A DNA stretch of 64,000 nucleotides from an uncultured Candidatus Saccharibacteria bacterium (GTDB taxonomy: Bacteria > Patescibacteriota > Saccharimonadia > CAZBQI01). Positions 26,655 through 60,807 of this stretch are shown here, one piece after another. The stretch lies in assembly GCA_964494105.1 (NCBI GenBank), contig CAZBQI010000003.1, positions 21,737 to 85,736 on the forward strand. Direction: 5' to 3'. The notes below the pieces were generated by a model. That model saw only the letters and a program-made list of their open reading frames with translations. It had not been told where the DNA came from and ran no database searches. Each line of letters begins with the position of its first letter. Within the stretch, counting starts at the first letter, position 1. A program made the translations under genes and the position numbers.

Positions 26655-29384
26655 ATGAGTGGAATAGAAAGTGCGCACGCAGAGTCCGCAACATCAGCTG
26701 GCATTAATAGAGCTTATGCCTCGGAGTTTGTTTTAACCCTGAGTGATGCCAAATGCCAAGATACAGAATTGGCGGGTGGAAAAGCGGCAAACTTATCGAT
26801 ATTAGTGCGAAACGGAGTGGATGTGCCCGAAGGTTTCGTGCTTACGACCGAAGCATACGATGTGATCACAAGGGATCCTTATTATTATGATCTGGGAATA
26901 GCGTACGATATGTTGTCAGGCACTAGCTATGTCTCAAACGGCAATACAGAAGGCAAAGAGCCAAGTGGACAGATGCTTGATATATTGGAAGAAGCATCCA
27001 GAGCTGCGAATTACTTTGAGGATGCAATAGCATTGCGAAGCTCAGCAACAGTTGAGGACGGATCAAGAACAAGTCTTGCAGGTGTATTTGATACGCATTA
27101 TGTCAATAGAGAATCTGCTAGTACACCTGGCTTGGTAATGAATACTATTCTAGGGATATATAAACAAGCTCAATCAGAAACAACTCGGCGGGCATTGATT
27201 GAGCACGGAATTAATCCTGATGATTTAAAAATGGCAATAATTATTCAACGCTTGGTAAAGGCTGAATACTCTGGTGTTATGTATACAAGAGCGAGTGGAG
27301 ATGGTCGCTTGGTTCAGTACACTCAAGGAATGGGGGATCGTTTGGTAGACGGGGTTACTACAGGTACTTCGATCATCATAGAACCCGAAACTGGTGTAAT
27401 CACTCGTTCATTTGATTTTGAATCACGTGCCATGCCACGTGAAAACGTGAAGGAGTTAGAAAGGGTTGCCTCAGAAGTCGAGTCAGTTTTTGGCGGCACA
27501 CCTCAGGATGTTGAATTCGCTATCGATGAGCGACGCAGTGTAAAAGTTGTTCAGTCCAGACCAATGACACGAGAAGTAGAAGGTATCTCTCAGGAAATTA
27601 CGACACTCGAAGCGGTTGATATGATCAAGGCTCGAGCTGAGGCAGTTATGCAACATGAGATGTCTAGGCTGAAGACTCAAAATTCTATTCTATTTCAAGC
27701 TAACTTTTCCGAATTACTGCCAAACCCGTCACCAATGGACGTTGGGGTGTTCCAGTACATTTTCCCTGGCAGGGACGAGGTAGATGGAGCAATTCAGATT
27801 GGGCGTCGTGACATGGGGTACCCATTAAAAGATGGTTCCACTGGTTACTTGCATTATATTGGTGGCAGAGCTTACGAGAGTTTAGCTGGCGACGCACTAA
27901 CCTATTTTGGAGGATTTCCTGAGAGTGAAGCGGAGTATGTAGAAACGCTCGTAGCTGAGTATTTGAGAAAAGTACAAGAAGACCCAGATCTTGCTTCCTA
28001 CCCGGAGATGGGATTATACCTGCAGGATCCTACTCTAGAAGATTTGCAAACAAGATACGGTGATCGCGCACCAAAACTCTTTGATGTCTATCATCAACTC
28101 AGACAAAAGCTCAAGTACTCGGCAGAAGTGTTTAAGGATAATTTTGGGCAGACTGGAAATATTGAAAACGAACAGTTTATCGAATCGTTGTCAGATCAGG
28201 AACTTGACGAGCTTGACGATGATGCACTGCTATATTCCACAGTCCTGATATTGGAGCATTTGAGACAAAAATCATGTGTAGACTTTGTTCATGCAGCTAG
28301 ACTTGGCTTCTACTATACCCAAAGACTTCAATCATTTCTCGCCGATACACTTGGTTTAGCACCTGATGAAATGCAAGAGACACTAGCAACTTTAGGCCAA
28401 GGCCTCGAAGGCAGTAGTGTAACAGAAACTAACATAGCAATTAGTGAAGCAGATGATCTGGATACTGCTCTAGCGATAGCAAGACAAAGGATATCTCATT
28501 ATCCCGCGATTGGAGAAATGTTAGAAATTAGGCATCCTAGACTTAGTGAGGACCCCGATGCATTGCGGGCATATGTTGAGGAGATACGAATTAATAGAGA
28601 CTTTAGGTTTAAACATGAGGCGCAGACGAAAGAGCGCAGAGTAGCGGAGCAATCATTAACTGAGATGCTACCTCTAGAACTACAAGCTGAATTTAGAGAA
28701 GTAGCAAAAAACGCGCAAACTTACATGGCTTTGCGAGAAACCATAAAGGACCAATTTGGTCGTGAGTACGGTCTACTAAGGGAGAGATTAGTTGAAATCG
28801 AATCACGCTTGGGTATTGTGCCAGAGGGGATTTTTTATCTTTATCCGCGAGAACTACCCGAAGTTATGCTCGATCCCAGTTCGTACTATCATATAATCGA
28901 AGCGCGCAAAGCCGAATTTACAGCTTTTCAGAAGGTGAGTATGCCTACGGTGATCACTCCGAGTAGCATTAGTTCTATAGAAGTTGGCGTAAGTAATAAT
29001 AGAAAGTTAGTCGAAGAAAAAGGCAGGTTTCTTTCGCACGGCACTGCTGTTCAGGGGGTAGTTATTAAGTTAGATGACTATGGTGAACTCGAGGATGACC
29101 CACAACACACAAGGGCTGCTTTACATCAGAGGATTCAAGAACTGAAAGGCAAAGGAGTAAAAGTAATTCTAGCTGCGCGTCAGGTTAATCTTACCGATGA
29201 CCCACTTATCAATCTCGCAGATGGTTTAATATTGCAGAAAGCGGGCATTGTATCTCATGGGGCTCAAAGGGCTCGTGAACTTGGGATAGGCGCACTATCT
29301 GGTATAGATATATCTATAATAGATTCTGGTATGAAGATAATATTTGATCCGCATAACAGAATGGTAAGGAGGATTGATGAGTAG
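26655..29384 (+). CDS. PEP-utilising-enzyme-family phosphotransferase with rifampin-phosphotransferase-like architecture (N-terminal ATP-grasp/PPDK_N domain, C-terminal mobile His domain)
   Basis: 909 aa. N-terminus has GGKAANL and RSSATVEDG. The extreme C-terminus has GIVSHGAQRARELGIGALSGI (swivelling phospho-His motif). No C-terminal PEP-binding TIM barrel, so not a bona fide PpsA. Confidence 0.65.
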   Translation: MSGIESAHAESATSAGINRAYASEFVLTLSDAKCQDTELAGGKAANLSILVRNGVDVPEGFVLTTEAYDVITRDPYYYDLGIAYDMLSGTSYVSNGNTEGKEPSGQMLDILEEASRAANYFEDAIALRSSATVEDGSRTSLAGVFDTHYVNRESASTPGLVMNTILGIYKQAQSETTRRALIEHGINPDDLKMAIIIQRLVKAEYSGVMYTRASGDGRLVQYTQGMGDRLVDGVTTGTSIIIEPETGVITRSFDFESRAMPRENVKELERVASEVESVFGGTPQDVEFAIDERRSVKVVQSRPMTREVEGISQEITTLEAVDMIKARAEAVMQHEMSRLKTQNSILFQANFSELLPNPSPMDVGVFQYIFPGRDEVDGAIQIGRRDMGYPLKDGSTGYLHYIGGRAYESLAGDALTYFGGFPESEAEYVETLVAEYLRKVQEDPDLASYPEMGLYLQDPTLEDLQTRYGDRAPKLFDVYHQLRQKLKYSAEVFKDNFGQTGNIENEQFIESLSDQELDELDDDALLYSTVLILEHLRQKSCVDFVHAARLGFYYTQRLQSFLADTLGLAPDEMQETLATLGQGLEGSSVTETNIAISEADDLDTALAIARQRISHYPAIGEMLEIRHPRLSEDPDALRAYVEEIRINRDFRFKHEAQTKERRVAEQSLTEMLPLELQAEFREVAKNAQTYMALRETIKDQFGREYGLLRERLVEIESRLGIVPEGIFYLYPRELPEVMLDPSSYYHIIEARKAEFTAFQKVSMPTVITPSSISSIEVGVSNNRKLVEEKGRFLSHGTAVQGVVIKLDDYGELEDDPQHTRAALHQRIQELKGKGVKVILAARQVNLTDDPLINLADGLILQKAGIVSHGAQRARELGIGALSGIDISIIDSGMKIIFDPHNRMVRRIDE

Positions 29385-29988
29385 AGTGACTTTTCTGCGT
29401 CATGGTATTCTTCAGAATCCATATAACGACTATACTCAACTAACATTAATGCAGCTAAATGAATTAGCCGAGCAGAAAACACAGCCACATATCAACCAGG
29501 CGCAATCAACGCATCTTATCAGCAAAAAAATTGAAAGTCTCAAAAGTATAGAAGCTATTTACTGTGCCACTAATCGTCGTTCGGCTGAGACAGCTGCCTT
29601 ACTAGCACAGAGCTTAAATAAGCCATTTCCAATAGAAGCAACAGCATTATTAAATGAAATTGTTTTTAGCCCAGCTAAGATGATAGCTGAAGCTCAGTAT
29701 AAATTAGCAGGCATGGATGCAATTAGGGAGAGTTTATTTATGTCTATAGTCTCAGGGGACGGCAAAGCTGAAAGCCTGAGCGATATTTACAATCGGGTCA
29801 ATAGAATAGATGGTTTAATTAAAAAATCTAGATACGGGGATGTGCTTGTTGTAACGCATGGATTCTTAATGCGCTTTTTACAGGTACATTATTTACAAGA
29901 ACAAGTAAATTTTATGCATATAAAAGCAGAAGATATCGCACAACAGAAAAATTACTATTATTTAGATGGCTTTACTACAAAAATATAG
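29377..29988 (+). CDS. histidine phosphatase superfamily protein (phosphoglycerate-mutase-like)
   Basis: FLRHG (RHG catalytic His), RRSAETA and VVTHG motifs. AAGGAGG RBS. Overlaps the upstream gene by 8 nt. Confidence 0.7.
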   Translation: MSRVTFLRHGILQNPYNDYTQLTLMQLNELAEQKTQPHINQAQSTHLISKKIESLKSIEAIYCATNRRSAETAALLAQSLNKPFPIEATALLNEIVFSPAKMIAEAQYKLAGMDAIRESLFMSIVSGDGKAESLSDIYNRVNRIDGLIKKSRYGDVLVVTHGFLMRFLQVHYLQEQVNFMHIKAEDIAQQKNYYYLDGFTTKI

Positions 29989-36610: not shown

Positions 36611-36688
36611 TTTACTTACTATACCATAAATGTTTACTACGTCACAAGAAGCTGACAGATACAAGGTTCTACCGTAGAATGGTCGTAT

Positions 36689-37138
36689 ATGGGTTTTACG
36701 CTTGAGATTTTAGATAAAGCTGGTCCGACTGAATATAAAGATATACAAAAGTTGGCTATTCAATTAGGCGAGAATCATTTAGGTAAAGTTAGCGGTGAGC
36801 AGAAATACATAGAACATGTAATAGATAATCACTTCGCCAAAATTGTAGTAGCTCGGGACGAAAACGCTCGTATTGTCGGGATGGCTACGGTTATTTTAGT
36901 AACCAAAATCGCTTACGACGAAGCGCACATAGAGGATGTCGTAGTGGACGAATCTATGCGTGGTCAGGGTCTTGGAAAGGCCATAATGCAAATGGCCATA
37001 GAAACGGCGTGGTCTATGGGCGCGGATAAAATTGAGCTGACATCACGCGCTAGTCGTGAGGCGGCCAACGCTTTGTACCAAAAACTGGGGTTTAAACTTC
37101 GCAAAACTAACGTTTACATTTTAAAAAAAGGTAATTAG
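36689..37138 (+). CDS. GNAT-family N-acetyltransferase
   Basis: 149 aa. RGQGLGKAIMQMAIETAWSMGADKIELTS...NALYQKLGF is the acetyl-CoA-binding motif A/B region. Confidence 0.8.
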   Translation: MGFTLEILDKAGPTEYKDIQKLAIQLGENHLGKVSGEQKYIEHVIDNHFAKIVVARDENARIVGMATVILVTKIAYDEAHIEDVVVDESMRGQGLGKAIMQMAIETAWSMGADKIELTSRASREAANALYQKLGFKLRKTNVYILKKGN

Positions 37139-37139
37139 C

Positions 37140-38309
37140 ATGGCTCGTGTTAGCATTTCTGAATACCGAGCAAAAAAGCTGCTACTTGGTGATGATTACG
37201 TGGGTTGGCAGTTAAGCGTCAAGAATGCTCGAGCCATAATTTCCAAGCTTCCACGAACAGCAACATATGTAGTTAAAGTTGATCAGGGTGTAAAGAAACG
37301 TTTCAAGCAGGGATTGCTTTCTGTAAATGTTGCCAAAGATCAGTTAGAAAGACATATTAAAAACTATGCCGCCAAAGGGTACGGACAGTTTTTAATAGAG
37401 ACGTACATACCGCACTTGCAAACGGCCGAACGCTACCTTTCGCTCGAGCGAGTGCGCCAAGGCATCAAGATATTATATTCGCTTAAAGGTGGCGTTGATA
37501 TCGAAGACAGTAGCGATTCCGTTTTGCAGGCTACTTATAGTGGTAAGCAAGTGATTCTGGAGGATATTGAGCGCGCATTAGAGGTAGAAACCGGATTTTT
37601 AGCGGGCATTGTCGATAAAATGAACGCACTACACATTAGTTTTATAGAAATTAACCCTTTGCTTGTTGTTGAGAGAAAGCCAATTCTGCTAGATTGTGCA
37701 ACTATGGTAGATTCTACCGCCAGTTGGTTTGTTGGTGGCGAATGGAGCGAGGATGATCTAATAGAGAGCGGCGGTGGTAACCCGCAGGAATTAGCTGTTC
37801 GCGAATTAAGCAAAAACTCTCCTTCGTCACTAACATTACGAGTGCTCAATCCGGATGGTTCGTTGTTTATGTTGCTCTCTGGTGGAGGCGCTAGTATCGC
37901 TTTGGCAGATGAAGCCTTTAACCTTGGCTTTGGAGCGCAAATTGCTAATTACGGGGAATATAGCGGCAACCCAACGCTAGAGGAAACTTATCTGTATACC
38001 AAACAAATTTTAAGCTTGTTACTAGAATCGGAGACTAAAAAGAAAGCTCTGGTAATCGCCGGCGGTGTAGCCAACTTTACCGACGTTTCTGCTACCTTTA
38101 AGGGGATAATTCAAGCGCTGGATGAGTGTAAAACCAAGTTAAAGAATCAGAAAATTAAAGTCTACGTGCGCCGGGGCGGGCCTAATGAGGCCAAGGGCTT
38201 GGCGATGATGAAAGATTTCTTGGAACACGCCGGCATTTTAGGCTCGGTAGCAGGCTCCGAGGAGCTCTTGGTAACACCGGTACGCGCGGCAGTAGCGAGT
38301 ATTAAATGA
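37140..38309 (+). CDS. aclB: ATP-citrate lyase beta-type subunit (ATP-grasp; AclB-like)
   Basis: 389 aa. FIEINPL, LNPDGSLFMLLSGGGASI, ANYGEYSGNPT, TFKGI and VYVRRGGPN align closely with motifs of the ATP-grasp half of ATP-citrate lyase (LEINPL, LNPKGRIW..GGGASV, ANYGEYSGAPSE, TFKGI, VRRGGPN). Confidence 0.7.
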   Translation: MARVSISEYRAKKLLLGDDYVGWQLSVKNARAIISKLPRTATYVVKVDQGVKKRFKQGLLSVNVAKDQLERHIKNYAAKGYGQFLIETYIPHLQTAERYLSLERVRQGIKILYSLKGGVDIEDSSDSVLQATYSGKQVILEDIERALEVETGFLAGIVDKMNALHISFIEINPLLVVERKPILLDCATMVDSTASWFVGGEWSEDDLIESGGGNPQELAVRELSKNSPSSLTLRVLNPDGSLFMLLSGGGASIALADEAFNLGFGAQIANYGEYSGNPTLEETYLYTKQILSLLLESETKKKALVIAGGVANFTDVSATFKGIIQALDECKTKLKNQKIKVYVRRGGPNEAKGLAMMKDFLEHAGILGSVAGSEELLVTPVRAAVASIK

Positions 38310-40081
38310 TAAACGTATCAGCCCTTCGCAAAGCCAAAAAAGGTATAGTAACGCTAGGGAGCCATCCTGGCATTATTCAGTCTATTTTAGACTTCGATTA
38401 TCTTAGCGGTGAAAGCGATCCTAGTGTGGTCGCTATTATTACCGCTAGTGCCAAAACGCAAAAATACTTTTGGGGGAATAGGGAGGTGCTGATTCCGTGC
38501 TATCCGCGGCTCGCGAGTATTCCCCGCGATAAAAAAGCCAATGTGAATCTGGCTATAAATTTAAATTCAGCCCGCCGAGTTTACGATTCAACTGTAGAAT
38601 TGTTTGAATTGTTTCCCGAAGCCTTTGGAGTACATATTTTTGCCGAGGATGTACCTGAACTGGCAGCTATCGAACTTTTTAATGCTTACCAAAAGAAGCA
38701 TTTTATTGTGGGCCCTTCAGGGGTTGGATTGGTTATAGCAAATTCCCTCAAGCTTGGTGCTGTCGGTGGGACTGACTATCAGCAGTTGCTAAAGTCTCAC
38801 TTATTTACCGAGGGCAATACGGCAGTTCTTTCGGCCTCGGGTGGCATGATAAACGAAATCATCAGGATGGTGGCAAATGGAGGCAAGCGAGTCTCGTTTG
38901 CTCTTACCCTTGGCGGGGATCGCTTTCCAGTTACGGCCCCCCTAGAAGCATTTCTGGCAGCCGAAGCCGACACGCAGACTGATCAGATTGTGTACTACGG
39001 CGAACTAGGTGGGTACGACGAATATGACCTAGTTGAGCTAATAAAAGCTAAGGAAGTTACCAAGCCGGTTGTCGCCTACATCGCGGGTAGTATTGCCGAG
39101 CAGTTCGACACGCCAGTGCAATTTGGCCATGCTAAAGCGCTCGCTGGCAACAAAAGCGAATCTGCTAGTGCCAAGCGGGCAGCGCTCGCGGAAGTTGGCG
39201 TGCAAGTTGCAGATTCACTCGAAAGCTTCCATACTTTAATAAGTAAGATGAAGAAACCAAACAATCCTGATCCAGAGGTAGATGCGGGTGAACTTAGCGG
39301 TCGTCGCAAAAGTTTGTTTAGTACTCAAATTGGGCGCGAGTCCGAGACTGGCTATGAATTTAGTGGCAAGTCGCTTGAAGCTTGGGAGCGCCGGGGCGAC
39401 TTTATAGCTATGGTGCTGGCTGGACTGCTTGGACGCCCGGCAAAATCGAAGCTACTAGAGGAATTCACCAAGACTGTGTTTATTTTGGGTCTAGACCATG
39501 GCCCGCAGGTTTCAGGAGCGCTAAATACCATTATTACTGCCCGCGCTGGCAAAGATATGGTGTCCTCATTAAGCGCTGGGTTATTGGCAATTGGCCCCCG
39601 CTTTGGTGGCGCTGGTAACGAGGCAGCGGGCAATTGGTTTGAAGGTGCAACATCGGGGGTAGAAGCCAGTGAGTTTGTAGAGAACTTAGCCAAGCAGAAG
39701 AAGCTAATTCTTGGCATTGGTCACAAGAAATATCGCCTTGGCTACCCAGACCCACGCGTTGTACGCTTGCTTGCCTTTGCCAAGCAATTAAAAGCTCATC
39801 GCTACCTGGATTTTGCCCAGGCAGTAGAGGATATTACAACCTCTAAAAAGGGTAATCTGATCTTAAATTTTGACGGAGCATTTGCAGCGATTCTTTTAGA
39901 TATTTTAGAGCTAGAAGAAAAGATGAGTGAAGATGAGATAAAAGAACTTATAGATGCCGAGTTTTTCAACGCATTCTTTGTAATTCCACGTTCAGTGGGC
40001 TTTGTTAGCCACTTCCTCGACCAAAAACGGCTTGATGAAGGCCTTTTCCGACTGCCTGACGAGTTATTGTACGCAAATTAA
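38306..40081 (+). CDS. aclA: ATP-citrate lyase alpha-type subunit (CoA-binding, phospho-His and citrate-synthase-like domains; AclA-like)
   Basis: 591 aa. QFGHAKA matches the catalytic phospho-His loop QFGHAG of ACL. GIGHKKYRLGYPDPRV and ITTSKKGNLILNFDGA match GIGHRVKS..PD.RV and ITTSKKPNLILNVDG. ATGA overlap with aclB. Confidence 0.75.
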   Translation: MINVSALRKAKKGIVTLGSHPGIIQSILDFDYLSGESDPSVVAIITASAKTQKYFWGNREVLIPCYPRLASIPRDKKANVNLAINLNSARRVYDSTVELFELFPEAFGVHIFAEDVPELAAIELFNAYQKKHFIVGPSGVGLVIANSLKLGAVGGTDYQQLLKSHLFTEGNTAVLSASGGMINEIIRMVANGGKRVSFALTLGGDRFPVTAPLEAFLAAEADTQTDQIVYYGELGGYDEYDLVELIKAKEVTKPVVAYIAGSIAEQFDTPVQFGHAKALAGNKSESASAKRAALAEVGVQVADSLESFHTLISKMKKPNNPDPEVDAGELSGRRKSLFSTQIGRESETGYEFSGKSLEAWERRGDFIAMVLAGLLGRPAKSKLLEEFTKTVFILGLDHGPQVSGALNTIITARAGKDMVSSLSAGLLAIGPRFGGAGNEAAGNWFEGATSGVEASEFVENLAKQKKLILGIGHKKYRLGYPDPRVVRLLAFAKQLKAHRYLDFAQAVEDITTSKKGNLILNFDGAFAAILLDILELEEKMSEDEIKELIDAEFFNAFFVIPRSVGFVSHFLDQKRLDEGLFRLPDELLYAN

Positions 40082-40120
40082 TTAGCACTCTTGACGGTAG
40101 AGTGCTAATGGCTTTATAAT
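40082..40120 (+). promoter_or_regulatory. stem-loop directly after the aclA stop, overlapping a TTGACG-18-TATAAT promoter for clpC
   Basis: 9-bp stem TTAGCACTC / GAGTGCTAA (40082-40090 and 40100-40108) with a 9-nt loop containing TTGACG (40091-40096). TATAAT at 40115-40120. The clpC TTG start at 40210 gives a roughly 85-nt leader. Confidence 0.45.
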
Positions 40121-40209: not shown

Positions 40210-42693
40210 TTGAAAGATTTCAGTAGTTTTAAAGCCTTTAGCGAACGACTTACCGAGAATGCTCGGCTAAGTTTGGACCGTGCTAATGATATTGCCAGAG
40301 CCATGGGCTCTACCTATATTGGTACCGAACACATTTTGCTTGGTGTTCTGGCGCAAGAAGGTTCGATTGGTTCCAAAGTACTAAAAAGTGCCGGTGTAAC
40401 CTTGGATCGCGCAAAGTTGGCATTAAGCCTAACGCCAAAAGTTCTTACCAACACCTCGTCTCGTGGATTGAGCGAAACGGCTAAGTTAACACTTACTTTA
40501 AGCTGGAAGATCGCCAAAGAATTTGGCCAAGACTACTGCGGTACCGAGCACATTTTATTCGCAACCCTCAACCAAAAGAATGCGCGCGCAACCATATTAT
40601 TGCGAGATATGAATGCCGATCTAGAAGTTGTGCGCGGCGAACTAGAACAATACCTATCGAACCAGCAGTATTTTTATGAAGAGCGAGCAAAGCGTAGTAA
40701 TACCAAAACACGCGCCAAAAAGAGCAAAACACCAACAATTGATTACTTTGGGGTGGATATTACCGCTCAAGCTCGCAAAGGCAAGCTTGATCCGGTAGTT
40801 GGTCGTGAGGTGCAAATAAAACGCATGATAACCATACTTAATCGCCGGACCAAGAATAATCCGGTGCTAATTGGCGAACCGGGAGTAGGTAAAACTGCCA
40901 TCGTAGAGGGTTTAGCTCAGCGAATCGTTACCGAGGAAGTTCCCGATAGTTTGCTCGACAAGCGCATTGTAAATATCGATCTATCGAGCCTTATAGCAGG
41001 TACCAAATATCGTGGTGAGTTCGAGGATCGCTTAAAGCGAATGCTCGAAGAGCTTAAAAAGAACGACAACATCATGTTATTTATTGACGAGCTACATCTG
41101 ATTGTTGGTGCTGGTGCAGCCGAAGGCGCAATAGATGCCGGTAACATTTTAAAGCCAGCTTTGGCACGTGGGCTTATTCGCGTAATTGGCGCAACCACAA
41201 TTGATGAATACCGCAAACATGTCGAAAAAGATGCCGCCCTTGAAAGACGCTTTCAAACAATTATAGTGCCAGAAGCCACGCCCGAGGAGACTGCTCAAAT
41301 TTTACGTGGGCTCAAGAAGCACTACGAGCACTTTCACGGCGTAAAAATTAGCGACGAGATTGTGGACGAGACTGTGAAATTATCTAAGCGCTACCTAAAC
41401 GATCGCTATTTGCCAGATAAGGCCATAGATATTTTGGACGAGGCAGCAGCCCAGTTACGCATTGATAAGGGTGGTAAATCTAGTGTTGAGACTAAAAAGA
41501 TGTATCGCAACCTGCGCGAGCTCACCAAGCGCATGGATGAAGCAGTAGAAAACGAAGACTACGAGAGCGCAGCTAAGCTTAAAACTCAAGTAAGCCTACT
41601 AGAGCAAAAGCTTGAACAGGCTCGCATGCGCCAAGACTTAAAAGGTAAGGCCTTAGAAATTACTAGCGAGAACCTGGCGGCAGTGATTGCCTCAATTACC
41701 GGTGTGCCGGTGAAAAAGTTAGTTAAGTCCGAGGCCAACCAGCTCATGAAACTCGAGGGCGCTTTGGCGCGTAATGTAATTGGCCAGCGCGAAGCTATTG
41801 CTGCTGTGGCGCGTTCGATTCGGCGAAACCGCTCTGGCATATCCGATGCCAAACGGCCGATTGGATCATTCTTGTTTATGGGCCCAACCGGTGTTGGAAA
41901 AACCGAACTAGCCAGAGTATTAGCGCGCGAACTATTCCATAGCGATGATGCATTGATAAAGATCGATATGAGTGAATTTATGGAGCGCCACAATGTGTCG
42001 CGATTACTTGGTGCGCCAGCCGGTTACGTGGGGTACGAAGAAGGTGGCCAACTAACTGAGAAAATTCGGCGTCAGCCATATTCGCTTATTTTGTTCGACG
42101 AGATTGAAAAGGCTCATCCCGATGTATTTAATATGTTGCTTCAAATTCTGGAAGACGGGCACGTGAGTGATGCGAAGGGTCGCAAAGTCGACTTTACTAA
42201 TACGGTGATAATTATGACTTCAAATATTGGTGCCGAGCGGTTGTACAAAGAAGCCGTTCTAGGTTTTAGAGCGGAAAAGACCGGTAGTGCCCAAGAGCTT
42301 ACCAGTCTACATGCAGAAATTGAAGACAGAGTGCGCGAAGATCTAAAGGAAACCATGCGACCAGAAATGCTTAATCGCATAGATAAGATTGTGGTGTTCA
42401 GAGCACTTTCGCATGCCAATGTGCGTAAGATCTTGCAGTTGCGCTTAAATGAACTAACAGAACGCCTAGCTGAAAAAGGCTTGGGTATCACTATGAGCCC
42501 GGCTGCTCGCAAGCACATAATAGATGAAGGCTACGAACCAAGCATGGGGGTGCGCCCCCTCCGCCGAGTCCTGGAAGAGAAGGTAGAGGATCCAATTGCC
42601 ACCGGCATATTAGACGGCACTTACAATGAGGGCGATTTAATTCACGTAGGTTTAAGGAATAAAGAACTTTCTTTCGAAGTAGCGAAAGAGTAA
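40210..42693 (+). CDS. clpC: ATP-dependent Clp protease ATP-binding subunit ClpC
   Basis: 827 aa. Two Clp_N repeats ([20 protein letters not shown]), AAA1 [10 protein letters not shown], a UVR-like linker, AAA2 [11 protein letters not shown] and the sensor region. TTG start with GGGAGA RBS. Confidence 0.9.
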
Positions 42694-43097: not shown

Positions 43098-43409
43098 TTG
43101 TCGATTGATCGAGATCCGACGCCAAGTCGGGAGCAGCTAGCATTTGAAGCTTATGAAGTAACAGGCGTAGATACTGTTGCTTCAATGGTACATGTTATTG
43201 GGTTTGAGGATGGAGCTCAGATAGATATGCGAATACCTGTTTTTCGTATAGAGTCTGCTAATCCCGGTGTTGTTGAGGAGTTAGCACCTGGTGATTATAT
43301 TATTTACACATTGGTGCGTGTTGGTGAGCTACGGGGTTTAAGTCCACCAATAATGACTGAAAGCTATCAGAGGATTCCGCCTGTAGATGTTGAGACAGAT
43401 TTCTCTTGA
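43098..43409 (+). CDS. hypothetical acidic protein (103 aa)
   Basis: Apparent TTG start; no recognisable motif. Confidence 0.35.
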   Translation: MSIDRDPTPSREQLAFEAYEVTGVDTVASMVHVIGFEDGAQIDMRIPVFRIESANPGVVEELAPGDYIIYTLVRVGELRGLSPPIMTESYQRIPPVDVETDFS

Positions 43410-43472
43410 GCGTAAGATATATTTCAAATAGAATACGGGTGTTAATAACTTATAGGAGGCTTGGAGATAGGC

Positions 43473-43967
43473 ATGGGTACAGATATTCAATCGGGTAGCA
43501 TTGATCCATCGATACGCGTCGGGAATGAGGTGGTTGGTGCTGATGTTATTCGGTCATTTCTTGACCGCAACGACGTATCTCCTTTTTTTGCAGGGTTTGG
43601 AGATGTATTGTCTGCCCAAACGCATTCGTATCACGAAATAGTCGAGCTAAACTCAGGTGGCAATATATTGTTTGCAATTCGGACTGGCAGATTTGACCAT
43701 TCAGGCGCGACAGATGCAGACGTAGATACGGCTGACCTTGACACAATTCTATTTGACTCTGCCGACTTAGTGTCCGATTATAGGTCTTTTGCGGGTTCAC
43801 GTGGGTTAGTGGAGTTACCGTTAAGTGGACCTAGTAGAGTGGCTCATTTTGCGTCAGGTGATAAGGTTTATGTTATCGCGGAAACTAACACCAAAATTCC
43901 ATCACTCAGCGCAGACTTCGATCCCGATGCCACAATACCCACGCCCCCGGTGTCGGCACACTCATAA
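43473..43967 (+). CDS. hypothetical acidic protein (about 165 aa)
   Basis: AGGAGG at 43455-43460 with ATG at 43473. Asp-rich (DADVDTADLDTILFDSADLVSD). No recognisable motif. Confidence 0.4.
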   Translation: MGTDIQSGSIDPSIRVGNEVVGADVIRSFLDRNDVSPFFAGFGDVLSAQTHSYHEIVELNSGGNILFAIRTGRFDHSGATDADVDTADLDTILFDSADLVSDYRSFAGSRGLVELPLSGPSRVAHFASGDKVYVIAETNTKIPSLSADFDPDATIPTPPVSAHS

Positions 43968-45564: not shown

Positions 45565-46512
45565 GTGATGAAGCGACTTTGGGCACTGCTACCAATAGTA
45601 ATTGTACTGATAATGGCTACGCAGTACCAAGCAATTATCGATTGGTATAACTTACAAACTTTTCAGCCGAGCGCTCAAGTGCAGGCAATTGCCGAGCAAA
45701 CCACTATGACTCCAGAAGGCAAGCGATATTTTTATTTAGCCAGGCCTCAGCTTGATAATAAAACAACGTTTAATCAGCACTGTCCTACCGGTGAGCTTAC
45801 TCAGGTTTTGGGTTGTTACAACCGAAATAGAATATATATTTTAGATGTAGATAAAGCCGAGCTAGAGAAAGTAGAAGACGTCACCGGTGCACACGAAATG
45901 CTTCATGCTGCTTACGACCGCCTTACTGCTGGTGAAAAATCTAAAGTAGATGAAGAACTTGAAAGTTATTACGCCACAGTTATCGACCCAAAACTGCGTG
46001 AGCTAATAGCTCAATATGATCGAGCCGAGCCGGGCGAACGGCTCAATGAGCTTCATTCAATTTTACCGACTCAGGTAGAGACACTAAGCCCGACACTTGA
46101 GGAATACTACAAGCGGTATTTCACAAACCGCCAAGCGATTGTGGCAAGCTATAAGCAGTACGAAGGTGTTTTTGATAGCTTGCAGTCACGTTACGATACG
46201 CTGAAAAACGAGATAGACTCGTTGAAAAAAGAGATTGATGTTGCCAAAGCAGAATATGAAGATGCAGCTGCCGAAGCGGATAGACTTACCGCTCAAATTA
46301 CTAGTTTGCGTAACAGAGGTAAGAGCGCCGAATCTAATCAGCTGGTACCCGCCCAAAATGCAGCGGTAAATAAGGTTAACGCGTTGGCTAATGAGATAAA
46401 AGTAATGGTAAACACCTATAATGCCGACGTAGATGAGGTCAATCGCCTGGCGCTAGAGCAAAATGAGCTTGTGCAGTCGCTGAATAGTAGTCAGCTTGCG
46501 CCAGCAAGATAG
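45565..46512 (+). CDS. membrane-anchored HExxH (zincin-like) protein with C-terminal coiled coil
   Basis: N-terminal TM helix, HEMLHAAYDRL, two Cys pairs, and a roughly 120-aa heptad-rich tail. Confidence 0.45.
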   Translation: MMKRLWALLPIVIVLIMATQYQAIIDWYNLQTFQPSAQVQAIAEQTTMTPEGKRYFYLARPQLDNKTTFNQHCPTGELTQVLGCYNRNRIYILDVDKAELEKVEDVTGAHEMLHAAYDRLTAGEKSKVDEELESYYATVIDPKLRELIAQYDRAEPGERLNELHSILPTQVETLSPTLEEYYKRYFTNRQAIVASYKQYEGVFDSLQSRYDTLKNEIDSLKKEIDVAKAEYEDAAAEADRLTAQITSLRNRGKSAESNQLVPAQNAAVNKVNALANEIKVMVNTYNADVDEVNRLALEQNELVQSLNSSQLAPAR

Positions 46513-46544: not shown

Positions 46545-47156
46545 ATGACAGATACAGTAAATCAAGAATCGAGCAATCCGCCTAACGGCCCTGAGTTTTT
46601 CGATGTCTTAGCGGTGCACAAGGCGATTGATGAGGCTAGAAGGGTGGGAATTGGTCATGGTCATGGTTTTCTTCGATCGGGTTTAGCCTTACCTGGAGTC
46701 AAAGACTATATAAGTGCAAGCAAAAAGCGTAGCGATACGAGACAATTTCCAGCAACTAAAAATATGATTGTTGATAATCCCCTGGTTCTTACATTCAAAA
46801 ATGGTTTTTCTCTAGATCCAATTATTGCAGCATTAGATAGCGCAGTCGCAGTGCACTATAATGTTGAAAATCTTCAGACGGAATCCTCAAGTATGGTTAT
46901 ATATGAACCAAGTGGACATACGCCAATGCATTCAGATCCTGCAATACTTAGGCTAGTTCTTACTCTGGCTGGTGAAGGTACAGAGGAGTATCGTGAATGG
47001 GGTGAAAACAGAACTGAGCACCACCACGCTTCACCTGGCAACATTACTGCTATGATGGCGATCCCAGGAGAAGAATTCCTACCATTACACGGAGTTTTGC
47101 CTGTGACAGAAGGGCGTGCAATAGTTGAGACTTCATATAAACTACAGAGAACTTAA
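46545..47156 (+). CDS. putative Fe(II)/2-oxoglutarate dioxygenase (PhyH-like), tentative
   Basis: PSGHTPMHSDP resembles the PhyH GGTPWHQD HxD facial-triad motif. Distal His (LPLHGV) and Arg (TEGRAIV) candidates are present. Confidence 0.35.
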   Translation: MTDTVNQESSNPPNGPEFFDVLAVHKAIDEARRVGIGHGHGFLRSGLALPGVKDYISASKKRSDTRQFPATKNMIVDNPLVLTFKNGFSLDPIIAALDSAVAVHYNVENLQTESSSMVIYEPSGHTPMHSDPAILRLVLTLAGEGTEEYREWGENRTEHHHASPGNITAMMAIPGEEFLPLHGVLPVTEGRAIVETSYKLQRT

Positions 47157-53215: not shown

Positions 53216-54859
53216 ATGTCTGATATTCCGGGAGCAAATATGGGTGCGGGTGAAATCGTCGCTGGTAGCCGGCCAGAATTAGCATTCCGTACCAGTAGTA
53301 GCGAATTTGAGCAGGGTCATCAAGTGGTAGAAATACCGCTAATTCGAAGTGATCTTGAGTTAACCGCAACAACACAAATAGTTAGGCCAAACGGAGAGGT
53401 TATTGACCCTCTAGGTACAGATGAGCAGCGATTTGAAGCAGTGCGCTCGACTGGTGCGGACCTTAGTTATACATTGAGGTCTAGCGAGGAGACACCAACA
53501 TTCCTGACTGCCCTCAGGGCTTATGACGGTTGGAGATATTCGCGTACTAGTGAGGTAGCAACCGCACCGCTTGAAGGTAACGAGGCTAATGGCTATCGCC
53601 CTCAGCACGTGTTTGAAATACCTCTGAGCGCAGTTAATTTTAGTGGCTTAGCAAGCAGTATTATGTCTACAGGTGACCGCGCTATTTATGCACACACGGA
53701 AGACCTAAACCCAGATGGTTCAGACGCTCATATTGGAGTGGCAATGTACGGCGTTGATATCTCTACAGATGGGATTTCTATTTCAGCCGTCGAGCCTGAT
53801 GATGCTGGAGAGCTTCATGTGGCAAAAATAACTGCAGAAGACTCAAGTAAGCGCAGTGGCGTTGATTTATATCTTGAGCTAAACGAAGCCGAAGATACAC
53901 TAAGAATTATAATCCAAAGCGCAAGTGAACAGCTTATCTCAAAAATAGCCTCGCGCGTTGCCAGAGTGTATGCCGGAGGAGTAGGTTCCATTACTGGGAA
54001 TAGATTAGGTGACTATACCCAACCGCTTAAAGATGCACTACCGGGGCGAATTAAGTATGTACCATTTCAAGATAGAGTTGTTAGTAGCCGGGAAGCTGAG
54101 ATTAAGCGTCGACTAATGGATGGCTATAGGCCTGACCAAGGTATTGAATGGCCAAAGTTACCAGAAATACCCTGGGGAACCCTAGGTAAAATTGGTGGTG
54201 TAGTTGCCGTAATCGCTTTGTTAAGTATGCTGCGTTCATGTGATTTCGATTTTGATTTTAGTGGTCCTGAGCCAAAGGCGCAGGCACCCGACTTGCTTAG
54301 TTGTGCTGCAACGGACTTTGAAGTACCAGGTGACTTTTCATCTCAAGTTGCAAATATGACGCCGGATGAGTTTACCGAAAGTCTACGCCGACAAGGTTTG
54401 AGTGCGGCGGATGCAGACGAATTACAGCAGTTAGCCGGTGTCGTATTAAGCCTTGATGGAGAGAGCGAAACCACAAGTCAATTGAATGCGTTAAATGCGC
54501 TTGGTGTAATCGCTGACCACGCTCAGAATATCGATAGTGGTTCTTTATTGGAAGAGAAAACCGGTGTCTTGGTAACTGCTGTGTGTCATATTAATGGCTT
54601 GCCACTACATAAAAGCTTTACAGTTGAGGCAAGTGGACCATGGTTACTAAGTTCATTGCATGATTTAGACACAGAGGGCGTTTTAAGCGAACAACAAAAA
54701 GTCGCTATTGTCCGATTACTAATGGCTGTGAGAAATCCGGTCGAAATGGACCCAGATACCAATGGCAACCCAACCATCAGCGATTGGCAGGGAATTACAA
54801 CCGAAAATAGCCACATTCAGGTTGGCCAAAACGGCCGAGTTGCCATTTTCCCTAATTAA
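53216..54859 (+). CDS. hypothetical bitopic membrane protein (547 aa)
   Basis: No signal peptide. One central TM helix (LGKIGGVVAVIALLSML) between two soluble domains of 310 and 210 aa. Acidic; no known motif. Confidence 0.45.
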   Translation: MSDIPGANMGAGEIVAGSRPELAFRTSSSEFEQGHQVVEIPLIRSDLELTATTQIVRPNGEVIDPLGTDEQRFEAVRSTGADLSYTLRSSEETPTFLTALRAYDGWRYSRTSEVATAPLEGNEANGYRPQHVFEIPLSAVNFSGLASSIMSTGDRAIYAHTEDLNPDGSDAHIGVAMYGVDISTDGISISAVEPDDAGELHVAKITAEDSSKRSGVDLYLELNEAEDTLRIIIQSASEQLISKIASRVARVYAGGVGSITGNRLGDYTQPLKDALPGRIKYVPFQDRVVSSREAEIKRRLMDGYRPDQGIEWPKLPEIPWGTLGKIGGVVAVIALLSMLRSCDFDFDFSGPEPKAQAPDLLSCAATDFEVPGDFSSQVANMTPDEFTESLRRQGLSAADADELQQLAGVVLSLDGESETTSQLNALNALGVIADHAQNIDSGSLLEEKTGVLVTAVCHINGLPLHKSFTVEASGPWLLSSLHDLDTEGVLSEQQKVAIVRLLMAVRNPVEMDPDTNGNPTISDWQGITTENSHIQVGQNGRVAIFPN

Positions 54860-57093: not shown

Positions 57094-57924
57094 ATGTATC
57101 CAGGCCTGACACTCACTAAACATTCCGGTAGTTGGATTGGCGCCCACCAGCGGCTGAATCGCATTGCTTATCGAGTAATCGCTCCGGAAGTGAAAGCTAA
57201 ATCATTTCCGGCACTTAAGCAAATAAACTATTTTGAGGGTACGAATGGCCCGGACGGCTTGAAACGAAAATCCTCGGGCAAGCACGAACCACTGCATTTT
57301 TATGATCCGGCAACCGACAAGGGGGGCGTGAAAGCTGAAATTACCAACCACTACAATCAGCTTGTAATCGCCTTGAAACAGCGCGACGGTATTCGCTCAG
57401 CATTCGAGGCTAGCTGGTTGGCTCATGCTGTTACTGACGGCTTAACACCGGCACACCATTACCCGTACGTTGAAAAGATGAACGAATTGCTAGAAAACAG
57501 CAATCACGAGGTTAATCGGTTTAAAGACAAGGCAATTGTGCACGGCAACACCAAGCGTGAGACGGTAAAGCAGACGTGGAAGTTGGTAGGTTCAAAGGGG
57601 TTAATTTCGATGCATGCCCATTTTGAAATCGGTTTTTCCGCGGTTTTACTTGGCAAAAAAATAACCGTTCGTTTGGATCGGCTAGAGCTTGAGAGAGCCC
57701 GAAAGATCGGGGCACTTGGGTTTTTTAAAGAACAGGCAAGAATGGTAGCAGAGTTAAAAATGTACGAACGTTTTTATCAAAAAGCTTGGACAGTCGGTTT
57801 GGCTCGTCAGGCACGTAATGTCCTGGCGCCCACTATTGCTCAAACAGTAGCCATTATATGGTTGTTAGCTTACGAAGAGGCCGGGTATCAGCTAAAGAGT
57901 TCTCTTCTCGGAAGAATAGGGTAA
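57094..57924 (+). CDS. zinc-dependent phospholipase C / S1-P1 nuclease superfamily-like protein, tentative
   Basis: AHAVTDGLTPAHH fits the HxxxDxxxPxH zinc-ligand motif of the PLC/P1-nuclease fold, with additional conserved His residues. Otherwise unannotatable. Confidence 0.35.
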   Translation: MYPGLTLTKHSGSWIGAHQRLNRIAYRVIAPEVKAKSFPALKQINYFEGTNGPDGLKRKSSGKHEPLHFYDPATDKGGVKAEITNHYNQLVIALKQRDGIRSAFEASWLAHAVTDGLTPAHHYPYVEKMNELLENSNHEVNRFKDKAIVHGNTKRETVKQTWKLVGSKGLISMHAHFEIGFSAVLLGKKITVRLDRLELERARKIGALGFFKEQARMVAELKMYERFYQKAWTVGLARQARNVLAPTIAQTVAIIWLLAYEEAGYQLKSSLLGRIG

Positions 57925-58798: not shown

Positions 58799-60124
58799 AT
58801 GAGAATTTTAGATATTACAGATACGGACAAAGTTCCCTACCAAGCTACAGATGTGTGGCGGGAGGCATTTAGTCGACCGCCTTATATGGAACAATATACT
58901 CCTGCAGAGGCTCAGGATATTTTGATCGATTTAGTTGGCCAAAACGGCGATTTATTGCTTGGCCAGGTAGACGGAGAAATTATTGCTGTTGCAGGTGGTC
59001 AATTTGATGGTGAATCAACATATTGGCTAGAAGAATTAGCAGTAAAACCAGAGCTACAGGGTCGTGGTTTAGGAAGAGAAATCTTTAGAGCCCTAATTGA
59101 TCGCGCATTAAATAAAGTACCGGAAAATTTAGCTCTTCGTACCAGTACCGAAAACTCAAAGGCACTTCAGCTTTATGAGTCCGAAGGTTTTACGCCTAAT
59201 GGCAAAAAAATTGTCGTGCCAAGTCGTAGAACAGATGGGCGAATTCGCTTAGACGAAAGAGTATATTTAACCAAACCAAATCAGGAGGTAGATGTGAAGG
59301 AGCCAATAACACTAAATAGACTGGCCGTTGTCTACCCGTCGGGCAATACAACGGCTCTAGTTTTCGATCAACTACTAGATAGCAATAGGCAAGAGCTAAA
59401 CGAGGGAATAATGCAGGCATGGAAAATTGAACACCCTGAGGAATCAGAAATTGAACAATGTTGTTTTGTGACTATACCAAATGATTCACTTTCAATAGCG
59501 CGAGTGGAAATGTTCGGCGGAGAGTTTTGCGGCAATGCGACTCGTAGTGTAATTGCACTACTAACAAAAGGCCAAAACTACAGAGGCTTTATCGAAGTTT
59601 CTGGCGTGACTAAACCATTGCAATTTAAAGTTAAAGACGGAGATATAGAGCTAGAGATGCCCTTACCACCAGCGAATAAAGTATCTAAGGTAATAAATGA
59701 AGGAACGCTTGTAACTCTTGACGGAATTACTCAGCTTGTTGTTATAGATCCTGAACAGCGTGAATCGCAGACAGCTAGAGAACTTCTGGAGTCACTCTTG
59801 GCAGAAAATAAATACGGTCTAGGTGGACAGCCGGCTGTAGGAGTGAGCTACTACGATGAAGACTCAAAGAAAGCTAACTTCTGTGTTTGGGTTAAAGAGA
59901 TCAATACAATATTTGACGAGACTGCATGTGGTAGTGGCACCTGTTCGATAGGAGTGGCGGTGGCCACTAGCCAGGGTGAAGATGTCGCGCTTGAAGTTGT
60001 TCAACCTTCTGGGGAAATCATCGCTACTTCTGCAACTGTTGCTAACGGAACAGAATTAGTAACATCTTCTAAAATTTCAGGCCCTGTTAGTGTCATGTAC
60101 GATGGTAGGATGGAGATCGCATGA
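58799..60124 (+). CDS. fusion protein: N-terminal GNAT acetyltransferase plus C-terminal DapF/PhzF-fold (diaminopimelate-epimerase-like) domain
   Basis: The N-terminal ~160 aa carry a GNAT motif (LAVKPELQGRGLGREIFRALIDRA). The C-terminal ~270 aa carry two DapF-type active-site Cys motifs, FGGEFCGNATRSV (cf. MCGNGxRC) and ETACGSGTCSIGVA (cf. ETxACGTGxxA). Confidence 0.55.
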   Translation: MRILDITDTDKVPYQATDVWREAFSRPPYMEQYTPAEAQDILIDLVGQNGDLLLGQVDGEIIAVAGGQFDGESTYWLEELAVKPELQGRGLGREIFRALIDRALNKVPENLALRTSTENSKALQLYESEGFTPNGKKIVVPSRRTDGRIRLDERVYLTKPNQEVDVKEPITLNRLAVVYPSGNTTALVFDQLLDSNRQELNEGIMQAWKIEHPEESEIEQCCFVTIPNDSLSIARVEMFGGEFCGNATRSVIALLTKGQNYRGFIEVSGVTKPLQFKVKDGDIELEMPLPPANKVSKVINEGTLVTLDGITQLVVIDPEQRESQTARELLESLLAENKYGLGGQPAVGVSYYDEDSKKANFCVWVKEINTIFDETACGSGTCSIGVAVATSQGEDVALEVVQPSGEIIATSATVANGTELVTSSKISGPVSVMYDGRMEIA

Positions 60125-60807
60125 GGAAGAGTGAAATTTACTCTCTGCTCAGACGAAAAGTAGTTCAGTACAAAGATTTGGTAGATGTCGATGTTAAGGA
60201 CTGCGGAGAAGGCCTGGCGGCTATCAGAAAAACGCAGATGCTTAGTGGGCTACAGACCGATCAAGACATGGTAGATTTTACGGGCAAGAAAGTATATGTC
60301 CGACAAACAGTTTCTCGTTTGCTTTTACTAGCCGCTAAGTCATTAAGGCAGGTGGATGGGCGATTGAGCTTACAGGTTGTTTATGGCTATCGCGCAAACA
60401 GCGTGCAAAAAGCTATGTTTAGTTCGGCACTAAAACAACTTAACAAGAAATATGCTGGCGACGAGCTTTATTCCGAAGCACACAAGCTCATCGCTGTACC
60501 AGATGTAGCTGGGCACCCTACTGGCGGAGCTGTTGATATACGTATTTTAAAAAGTGGAGTACCTGTTGATATGGGGACCGAGGTCGACGCATTTAACAGC
60601 CCAGATATTTTGGTGTTCTCTCCGTTTATTTCTAAAAATGCGTGGCGCAACCGAATGCTTCTTCGTCGCGTGATGATGAATGTTGGGTTTGCGCCTTTTG
60701 ATGGCGAGTGGTGGCACTTTTGTTACGGCGATAAAGAATGGGCGAAATATTATGCCAAGCCAAATGCAATTTACGAGCAAGTCGAGTTCAGTGAAATCAG
60801 TAAGTGA
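60121..60807 (+). CDS. D-alanyl-D-alanine dipeptidase-like (VanX/DdpX, M15D) protein
   Basis: VPDVAGHPTGGAVD (SxHxxGxAxD zinc site) and FDGEWWHF (catalytic E-W-W-H), with VanX-like size. ATGA overlap with the upstream fusion gene. Confidence 0.7.
   Translation: MRKSEIYSLLRRKVVQYKDLVDVDVKDCGEGLAAIRKTQMLSGLQTDQDMVDFTGKKVYVRQTVSRLLLLAAKSLRQVDGRLSLQVVYGYRANSVQKAMFSSALKQLNKKYAGDELYSEAHKLIAVPDVAGHPTGGAVDIRILKSGVPVDMGTEVDAFNSPDILVFSPFISKNAWRNRMLLRRVMMNVGFAPFDGEWWHFCYGDKEWAKYYAKPNAIYEQVEFSEISK

Follow-up and report, generated by a model that had tools for sequence, protein, structure and literature searches.

This analysis concerns a trio of genes, encoding a GNAT-family N-acetyltransferase and the two subunits of a predicted ATP-citrate lyase (ACL), in a 64-kb stretch of DNA (64,000 nucleotides, hereafter "the window") from an uncultured Candidatus Saccharibacteria bacterium of the Candidate Phyla Radiation (CPR; contig CAZBQI010000003.1). 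In the list of open reading frames (ORFs) of the window all three genes are intact, tightly packed and on the plus strand: the GNAT gene comes first (36689-37138, 149 aa), followed by aclB for the ACL beta subunit (37140-38309, 389 aa) and aclA for the alpha subunit (38306-40081, 591 aa). These coordinates are exactly those of the original prediction, which had described a GNAT ahead of two ORFs of 389 and 591 aa with a 4-nt overlap. The stop codon of the GNAT gene (TAG, 37136-37138) is separated from the aclB ATG by a 1-nt gap, and the overlap between aclB and aclA reads ATGA.

A consensus scan places a candidate promoter, CTGACA-17 nt-TAGAAT (10/12 matches), at 36652-36680 on the plus strand. 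Because its candidate -10 element ends 8 nt upstream of the GNAT ATG, and no obvious Shine-Dalgarno sequence was seen before that ATG (36652-36688), the sequence suggests a transcript that is leaderless or nearly so, with a leader that is very short or absent. An atpI-like gene starts 24 bp away on the minus strand (36664), and the F-type ATP synthase operon runs divergently from the GNAT gene. The next gene downstream is clpC (40210-42693), encoding a ClpC-type AAA+ chaperone, and the same kind of scan gives it a candidate sigma-70-like site of its own (11/12 matches, 40091-40120). Given the 1-nt gap, the 4-nt overlap, the promoter-like site upstream and the separate promoter-like site of clpC, GNAT-aclB-aclA looks like one transcription unit.

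Identity of the enzyme

Domains were called with Pfam and NCBIfam models at their curated cut-offs, and scores against proteins of known structure were obtained with phmmer against all Protein Data Bank (PDB) sequences. AclB consists of an ATP-grasp domain (about residues 40-202, nt 37257-37745; Citrate_synth_N, 89.9 bits against a cut-off of 83) and a citrate-binding domain (residues 215-385, nt 37782-38294; Citrate_bind, E 5.8e-51, 173 bits against 26.8). AclA begins with a CoA-ligase and phosphohistidine part (about residues 16-315, nt 38351-39250; Ligase_CoA and Succ_CoA_lig) and ends with a citrate-synthase-homology, citryl-CoA-lyase-like domain (residues 363-588, nt 39392-40069; Citrate_synt). 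Within this single 591-aa ORF both Ligase_CoA (175-298) and Citrate_synt (367-582) score above their curated cut-offs.

The structural comparisons point the same way for both subunits. AclA aligns over residues 16-587 with human ACLY (E 2e-101, 343 bits), whose residues 501-1091 it covers end to end, and then with the two-subunit enzyme of Methanosaeta concilii (E 1e-93, 318 bits) and with Chlorobium limicola AclA (E 1e-60, 209 bits). The best PDB match of AclB is likewise human ACLY (E 8e-59, 203 bits), followed by the Methanosaeta (191 bits) and Chlorobium (124 bits) proteins. The original prediction had held the motifs to track eukaryotic and Chlorobium ACL very closely; the enzyme is nearer to the eukaryote/Methanosaeta/DPANN type, and the Chlorobium enzyme is considerably further away, both by score and in the trees described below.

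Two related enzymes had to be considered. Succinyl-CoA synthetase (SCS, SucCD) was ruled out, as the window proteins fall far under the cut-offs of the curated NCBIfam models (36.8 bits against 375.55 for sucCoAbeta; 98.8 against 336 for SucD), and AclA reaches at most 74 bits against SCS-alpha structures. In the pair of citryl-CoA synthetase (CCS) and citryl-CoA lyase (CCL), represented by Hydrogenobacter thermophilus CcsAB and Ccl (6hxq, 6hxp), homologous domains carry out the same net chemistry but are divided between two enzymes, whereas in the window the alpha subunit itself contains the lyase-like domain, as it does in ACL; here the scores are only 73 bits (AclA against the CCS small subunit), 45 bits (AclB against CCS) and 55 bits (AclA against CCL), and the NCBIfam citryl-CoA lyase models give 46-73 bits against cut-offs of 193-409. 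CCS/CCL was therefore ruled out as well, and the comparison with SCS and CCS/CCL that had been proposed as a check sides with ACL by its scores and by the citrate-synthase-homology domain fused to the C-terminal end of AclA. The two-subunit ACL with an upstream GNAT is thus borne out by domain architecture, by the catalytic residues and by the scores. The window aclB and aclA encode a heteromeric ACL, as predicted, and it is of the eukaryote/archaeal-like type.

The closest structural models share the domain order of the window pair, namely the M. concilii (Methanothrix) ACLY-A/B (6hxi/6znw) and human ACLY (6hxh, 6uuz, 6poe). To these fused and archaeal-type representatives the window pair is only about 35-40% identical, although the alignments of AclA and AclB are full length. 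The window enzyme also differs from the human one in being made of two unfused subunits, in having no eukaryotic regulatory linker and in belonging to a CPR bacterium without lipogenesis. Chlorobium limicola/tepidum AclBA (6hxj) is, like the window enzyme, a two-subunit bacterial ACL encoded by an aclB-aclA pair and with the same catalytic scheme, but it is much more distant and works in an autotrophic reverse tricarboxylic acid (rTCA) cycle.

The motifs quoted in the original prediction (LNPDGSLFMLLSGGGAS, ANYGEYSG, VRRGGPN, QFGHAKA and ITTSKKGNLILNFDG) were all found, and the match to ACL is well outside what chance would produce. In the phmmer alignment, AclA residues E114, H275, H398, H473, D523 and R562 align with human ACLY E599, H760, H900, H975, D1026 and R1065, and all six are invariant among relatives. 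Across 83 members of the clade the AclB motifs VKxDQ, EINP, GGGAS, YGEYSG, ANFT and RRGGP vary little or not at all, and the last three align with the corresponding motifs of human ACLY, in which we take G309, N346, T348 and R379 to be the citrate-binding residues (from the 3MWD work). The roles of the catalytic residues in ACLY have been described (PMC10115795, PMC11365397), as has the movement of the His760 loop, which swings between the ATP and citrate pockets (PMC10115795, PMC11365397). Nothing in these residues suggests a pseudo-enzyme, and AclBA is predicted to be catalytically intact.

The CPR clade and its GHAKA loop

Identity is 54% or higher for each of the 120 best homologues, and all those with an organism name are labelled Candidatus Saccharibacteria or Saccharimonadales. 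The guess of a reduced-genome organism was therefore well placed, as the nearest homologues carry the label of a CPR lineage. An alignment-guided scan of one genome per Genome Taxonomy Database (GTDB) species found relatives in 409 species-level genomes; a scan of the genome contigs with the single AclA protein had matched nothing. The labels in 80 fetched loci include Saccharibacteria, Paceibacterota/Parcubacteria, Kaiserbacteria, Levyibacteriota, "Patescibacteria group" and some "uncultured Gammaproteobacteria," and a Dojkabacteria sequence also falls within the clade. ACL had been called phylogenetically sporadic in bacteria; in this lineage it is not, with a relative in each of those 409 CPR species-level genomes. 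In the databases some of these proteins are given as ATP citrate synthase or lyase (NCBI, JGI), but many are misnamed "citrate/2-methylcitrate synthase," "succinyl-CoA synthetase alpha" or "hypothetical."

One of the taxon labels deserves a separate remark. The metagenome-assembled genomes (MAGs) deposited as "uncultured Gammaproteobacteria" are those of loci (numbered L) L031, L037, L043, L046, L048, L056, L058, L059, L064, L066, L069, L072, L078, L081 and L082, among which L064 is a 1.61-Mb chromosome (OZ246394.1). Since these loci share synteny, a GC content of ~37-40% and an elongation factor G (EF-G) that is 72-90% identical with Levyibacteriota/Patescibacteria-labelled loci, the label is almost certainly wrong and we rejected it as a mislabel.

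Trees were built by neighbour joining (NJ) only, from representatives at 50% identity, with the CCS/SCS outgroup absent. In them the window falls in a CPR-only clade with a bootstrap of 100/100. The neighbours of this clade, at 64-65% support, are a second, GHAGA-type ACL labelled Saccharibacteria, other two-subunit ACLs and a DPANN archaeon; Methanosaeta-like and eukaryotic sequences lie further out, and the Chlorobiaceae ACLs form a distant, separate branch with 100% support. This placement fits the published grouping in which eukaryotic ACLA/B branch with DPANN (PMC11976288).

The clade has a character of its own in the phosphohistidine loop, QFGHAKA (nt 39119-39139, plus strand). The catalytic His275 (nt 39128-39130) is present, but the canonical GHAGA is altered at +2, with Lys277 (nt 39134-39136) in the position of Gly762 in human ACLY. 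The original prediction had pointed to this variant, which is present as described; it is not peculiar to this DNA, however, and is instead a signature of the whole CPR clade. Lys277 is found in 121/121 close homologues in the alignment of AclA relatives, and in 100/100 sequences of the CPR clade as against Gly in 30/30 other ACL representatives, the human and Methanosaeta enzymes having GHAGA. The close homologues and the set of representative proteins are independent of the pattern QFGHAKAL, whereas the 85/85 count in the locus set is not, as those loci were partly retrieved with that pattern. Among the representative proteins two variants occur inside the clade (P0123 and P0127), one with GHAGA, an apparent reversion, and one with GHAKS. 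A search for residues that co-vary with Lys277 among the AclA clade signatures turned up only Q160, a position at which most other ACLs have Asn; apart from these two residues, AclA has no strict signature of the clade. By these alignments Lys277 is a near-universal, fixed clade character of what would be the mobile catalytic loop. A change from Gly to Lys two residues past the catalytic His presumably tunes the charge or the dynamics of the phosphohistidine loop. As a fixed substitution of a residue that is Gly in all other ACLs sampled, it offers a natural experiment on the mechanics of that loop, and the GHAGA and GHAKS members provide natural variants with which to probe the role of the Lys.

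Parts of this picture have been published. A citrate-cleaving ACL was described in a CPR Gracilibacterium (PMC6851277), and aclAB is enriched in Saccharimonadia MAGs (PMC12577380). The Gracilibacterium enzyme resembles that of the window in belonging to a CPR bacterium without a tricarboxylic acid (TCA) cycle; it was, however, described as GHAGA, archaeal-like and "rarely detected in CPR" (PMC6851277), whereas the window clade is GHAKA and CPR-wide. In the searchable literature we found no description of a CPR-wide ACL clade, of an invariant GHAKA loop or of a habitual linkage to acetyltransferases or Kbl (glycine C-acetyltransferase), and a text search for "GHAKA" returned irrelevant matches only.

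Gene neighbourhood and metabolic role

The two subunit genes are adjacent in 82/84 loci, the remaining two being cut by contig ends. Beyond lineage-specific synteny, GNAT is the sole widely recurrent neighbour family (33 loci): in 25 of the 80 testable loci the gene immediately before aclB is an orthologous GNAT, and a GNAT-fold gene is found within 200 bp in at least 41/81. The flanks of the trio vary, from ATP synthase and ClpC (the window and L002) to TsaE/TsaB-like genes with type IV pilus genes, PRPP synthetase with MltG, and RecO.

Other lineages place different genes in the same position. In 13 further loci the slot directly upstream of aclB holds a protein of ~195 aa without a Pfam or NCBIfam match. 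HHalign finds this family GNAT-like, with 95% probability over motifs A and B and 93% over 157 columns against another GNAT cluster; it has a conserved RGKG motif, is non-orthologous to the window GNAT, and would represent an unannotated acetyltransferase-like family. Members were recorded in L036, L044, L050, L051, L055, L057 (6615-7205), L065, L067, L071, L074, L076 and L082, and in some cases it fills the slot in loci whose gene order is otherwise the same (L076 compared with L053 and L060). Directly beside aclBA in seven CPR loci of the Levyibacteriota type (L043, 6600-8818; L045, L047, L064, L073, L077 and L078) stand genes for L-threonine dehydrogenase (Tdh) and Kbl. Independently, in the DPANN archaeon Candidatus Norongarragalinales (L087:7340-9779), a Kbl that passes its curated cut-off and an untyped zinc-dependent alcohol dehydrogenase (Zn-ADH) adjoin aclBA. 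In a locus of the GHAGA sister clade (L086:2040-7755), a hexapeptide-repeat (LbH) sugar acetyltransferase lies immediately upstream of aclBA; this locus also has a fusion of a DegT aminotransferase with a GFO_IDH oxidoreductase and sits within a cluster of glycosyltransferase, methyltransferase and flippase genes. GlmS is found within 2.5 kb in 9/84 loci (the window not among them), MurB within 2.5 kb in 11 loci, directly downstream in six of them, and Ddl directly upstream in four. The shared theme of the aclBA neighbours is acetyl-CoA and CoA chemistry, and secondarily the cell envelope.

The window GNAT itself is a clear family member (Acetyltransf_1, E 1.6e-19, 70.7 bits against a cut-off of 20.7), and its acetyl-CoA-binding motif A (general form R/Q-x-x-G-x-G/A), RGQGLG, is kept in the orthologues. 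Its best curated match is the RimI model TIGR01575, with 53.5 bits against a cut-off of 86.4; the 18/18 orthologues also match this model, yet below the cut-off, and no NCBIfam equivalog reaches its cut-off for this protein. Its profile matches in the PDB are scattered over uncharacterised, polyamine or diamine, N-terminal and glucosamine-6-phosphate (GNA1) acetyltransferases, the GNA1 structures (E 1e-10 to 5e-7) matching no better than polyamine or N-terminal acetyltransferases. As a general identification, RimI beside tsaE and tsaB was rejected: the score is below the cut-off, and the idea applies to just one Saccharibacteria subclade, to which the tsaE plus tsaB-like arrangement beside the GNAT is confined.

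We consider it fairly probable that the window carries a catalytically intact ACL operon that supplies acetyl-CoA from scavenged citrate, with no part in CO2 fixation. This reading starts from the identity and intactness of the enzyme, its membership of the CPR clade and the linkage of its genes, as described above; the direction of flux, the source of the citrate, the substrate of the GNAT and the role of Lys277 are the parts that we infer. By analogy with the family, AclB would hold ATP with the ATP-grasp domain and citrate with the citrate-binding domain. On the mobile loop of AclA, His275 would be phosphorylated and hand the phosphoryl group to citrate, after which attack by CoA would give citryl-CoA and then acetyl-CoA and oxaloacetate. 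Scavenging, from the host or from the environment, would provide the citrate. The acetyl-CoA would feed acetyl-transfer, for example by the GNAT, possibly in amino-sugar/cell-envelope or in protein/amine N-acetylation.

The metabolic setting favours such a supply. Complete Saccharibacteria genomes have no pyruvate dehydrogenase (PDH), no pyruvate:ferredoxin oxidoreductase (PFOR) and essentially no TCA cycle, so that "acetyl-CoA metabolism appears to be lacking" (PMC6031116). With PDH and PFOR missing, ACL may serve both as the supplier of acetyl-CoA and as the means by which free CoA is re-charged, and it is on this ground that an anabolic module for citrate-to-acetyl-CoA supply is the best reading. 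In its published interpretation, the Gracilibacterium ACL likewise cleaves citrate of external origin, yielding acetyl-CoA and oxaloacetate (PMC6851277). Gene content in the 64-kb window is housekeeping and glycolytic only. No TCA enzyme and no rTCA partner gene, such as those for 2-oxoglutarate:ferredoxin oxidoreductase, PFOR or fumarate reductase, turned up there or among the conserved neighbours of aclBA, and published Saccharibacteria genomes lack these genes too (PMC6031116). Because the intact ACL adjoins acetyl-CoA-using enzymes, or would be co-transcribed with them, a role as acetyl-CoA supplier is the simplest reading, and acetyl-CoA from imported citrate, as the original prediction proposed, remains the best-supported one.

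Several observations weigh against it. The ACL reaction is near equilibrium and gene content alone cannot set its direction; the Tdh and Kbl neighbours produce acetyl-CoA and are equally consistent with the reverse. In the window and among the conserved neighbours of aclBA, we saw no citrate transporter, no Pta/AckA and no enzyme that uses oxaloacetate. The trees are of the NJ type and contain no CCS or SCS outgroup, and a Lys where other ACLs have Gly might alter catalysis in a manner invisible to sequence. The GNAT is missing from about half of the loci, and its match is spread over many substrate specificities with none singled out. Among metagenome loci of the GNAT family with room downstream, aclB is adjacent in only 8/70, or in about 8/17 when contigs of at least 4 kb and a GC content of at most 0.55 are considered, in a scan that used a 5-sequence alignment, drew in many high-GC non-CPR GNATs and is not a clean orthologue test. 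The GNAT-only loci have mostly 57-73% GC, and most are for this reason not CPR. The idea of the GNAT as a dedicated ACL partner was rejected, as it is missing from so many ACL loci and its family is common without ACL. Given these adjacency counts, it is best regarded as a general small acetyltransferase that is predicted to be often, but not obligatorily, operonic with ACL.

It is important to ask whether the adjacency of GNAT and aclBA means anything at all. It could be an inherited gene order without function, with the GNAT a housekeeping enzyme of, for example, the RimI type. RimI is its best family match, albeit below the cut-off, many Saccharibacteria loci show the tsaE and tsaB-like genes of the classic rimI neighbourhood, and the GNAT family is common without ACL. 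The trio is nevertheless retained while its flanks change, and three non-orthologous acetyltransferase families plus Kbl fill the slot beside aclB in different lineages, so that we think inherited order doubtful, though well worth keeping in mind.

The main rival for the direction of flux is that ACL works in the opposite sense, forming citrate with a gain of ATP (acetyl-CoA + oxaloacetate + ADP + Pi to citrate + CoA + ATP), which would conserve the thioester energy of acetyl-CoA obtained, for example, from threonine via Tdh and Kbl. An ATP-forming use of ACL is reportedly found in Desulfobacter postgatei. In ACLY the retro-aldol step can proceed in either direction (PMC10115795), and the tdh-kbl pairs directly beside aclBA in the seven CPR loci, like the Kbl and untyped Zn-ADH of the DPANN locus, would suit this direction. 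A reverse ACL would, however, require a supply of oxaloacetate and the export of citrate, it leaves the linkage to acetyl-CoA-consuming GNAT and LbH acetyltransferases unexplained, and the neighbour in the window is a GNAT and not Kbl. We judge it unlikely.

A wider version of the supply reading is similarly improbable on present evidence. In it, the ACL of the CPR clade would be an ancient subfamily restricted to these bacteria and marked by the loop Lys. It would stand at the centre of a minimal acetyl-CoA economy that draws its acetyl groups solely or chiefly from host citrate. Physical or transcriptional coupling would join it to the acetyltransferase or other acetyl-CoA enzyme that a given lineage needs (GNAT, GNAT-like, LbH or Kbl), and Lys277 would either alter the chemistry of the loop or be an acetylation site for product feedback by the GNAT. 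Were this true, prokaryotes would have a counterpart of the ACLY-acetyltransferase axis of eukaryotes, and the clade, which lies close to DPANN and eukaryotic ACLs, could also bear on the origin of eukaryotic ACLY.

A regulatory role for the GNAT, compatible with citrate-to-acetyl-CoA supply, would have it modify AclA or AclB by lysine acetylation, much as Pat/AcuA do with their target, with Lys277 as a candidate site. Enzymes that form acyl-CoA are known to be controlled by acetylation, as acetyl-CoA synthetase is by Pat/AcuA. The conserved GNAT-aclBA operon and the invariant Lys near the catalytic His agree with the idea; but the clade has Lys277 throughout, while only about half of the loci have the GNAT, and no specific similarity to protein lysine acetyltransferases was seen, which leaves little room for it.

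The change in the loop also raises the question whether the GHAKA clade is ACL in name only, having drifted to another hydroxy-tricarboxylate or dicarboxylate, or to a CoA-transfer or ligase role. The Lys does replace a Gly that is invariant in the 30 other representatives and is, as a rule, conserved in SCS, CCS and ADP-forming acetyl-CoA synthetases (ACD) too. Against this, K277 and Q160 are the sole strict AclA signatures of the clade, the YGEYSG, ANFT and RRGGP motifs and the catalytic His, Glu and Asp residues are invariant, and one nested member has gone back to GHAGA, which suggests that the two forms of the loop are perhaps interchangeable. Drifted chemistry thus has only a slim chance of being right.

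That ACL here marks a CO2-fixing organism with an rTCA cycle, as its use as an rTCA marker in metagenome pipelines would imply, we reject as scarcely credible, since the 64-kb window showed no partner genes, the genomes of Saccharibacteria contain next to no TCA genes and lack PFOR (PMC6031116), and the clade is phylogenetically far from Chlorobiaceae ACL.

Because metagenome pipelines take ACL as a marker of the rTCA cycle, a CPR-wide ACL in at least 409 species-level genomes is expected to be a systematic source of false autotrophy calls. If true, an ACL fed with host citrate would fill the acetyl-CoA gap of the Saccharibacteria (PMC6031116), and citrate would be a specific metabolite on which these episymbionts depend, a possibly useful lead for their cultivation. 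The recurrent linkage to acetyltransferases and Kbl, in turn, leads to testable hypotheses on the targets of acetylation.

Other features of the window

Besides the genes discussed here, the window includes those of the F-type ATP synthase operon, ClpC, PBP1, DnaE, GatAB, tRNA synthetases and a class II aldolase. Between aclA and clpC, at 40082-40108, lies a perfect CIRCE-type inverted repeat, TTAGCACTC-N9-GAGTGCTAA, which we take to be the consensus of the HrcA operator. The repeat overlaps with the -35 element of the 11/12 candidate promoter and stands upstream of clpC, not of groESL or dnaK.

A 909-aa protein is encoded at 26655-29384 (plus strand) with a PPDK_N ATP-binding domain and a C-terminal mobile His domain of the PEP-utilizers type, but without the PEP-utilizers_C barrel; its architecture resembles that of PEP-synthase-like or rifampicin-phosphotransferase-like proteins. 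A gene of the histidine phosphatase family (29374-29988) follows right after it. A second GNAT gene, at 58799-60124 (plus strand), encodes 441 aa with an N-terminal GNAT domain and ~300 unannotated C-terminal residues. Since it overlaps by 4 nt the gene of a D-Ala-D-Ala dipeptidase (Peptidase_M15, 60121-60807, plus strand), the arrangement suggests a cell-wall-related pair.

At 5960-7975 (plus strand) is a 671-aa homologue of HerA/DUF87 and TrwB-like coupling ATPases. It is followed by two genes without a Pfam match, at 7978-8673 (plus strand, 231 aa) and 8675-9883 (minus strand, 402 aa), and the three may belong to a module for DNA translocation or secretion. Further ORFs of 103-547 aa had no Pfam match at the thresholds used (2673-3908, 43098-43967, 46545-47156, 53216-54859 and 57094-57924); such Pfam-less ORFs are typical CPR "dark" proteins. 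The 315-aa product of 45565-46512 has a weak match of the coiled-coil type only.

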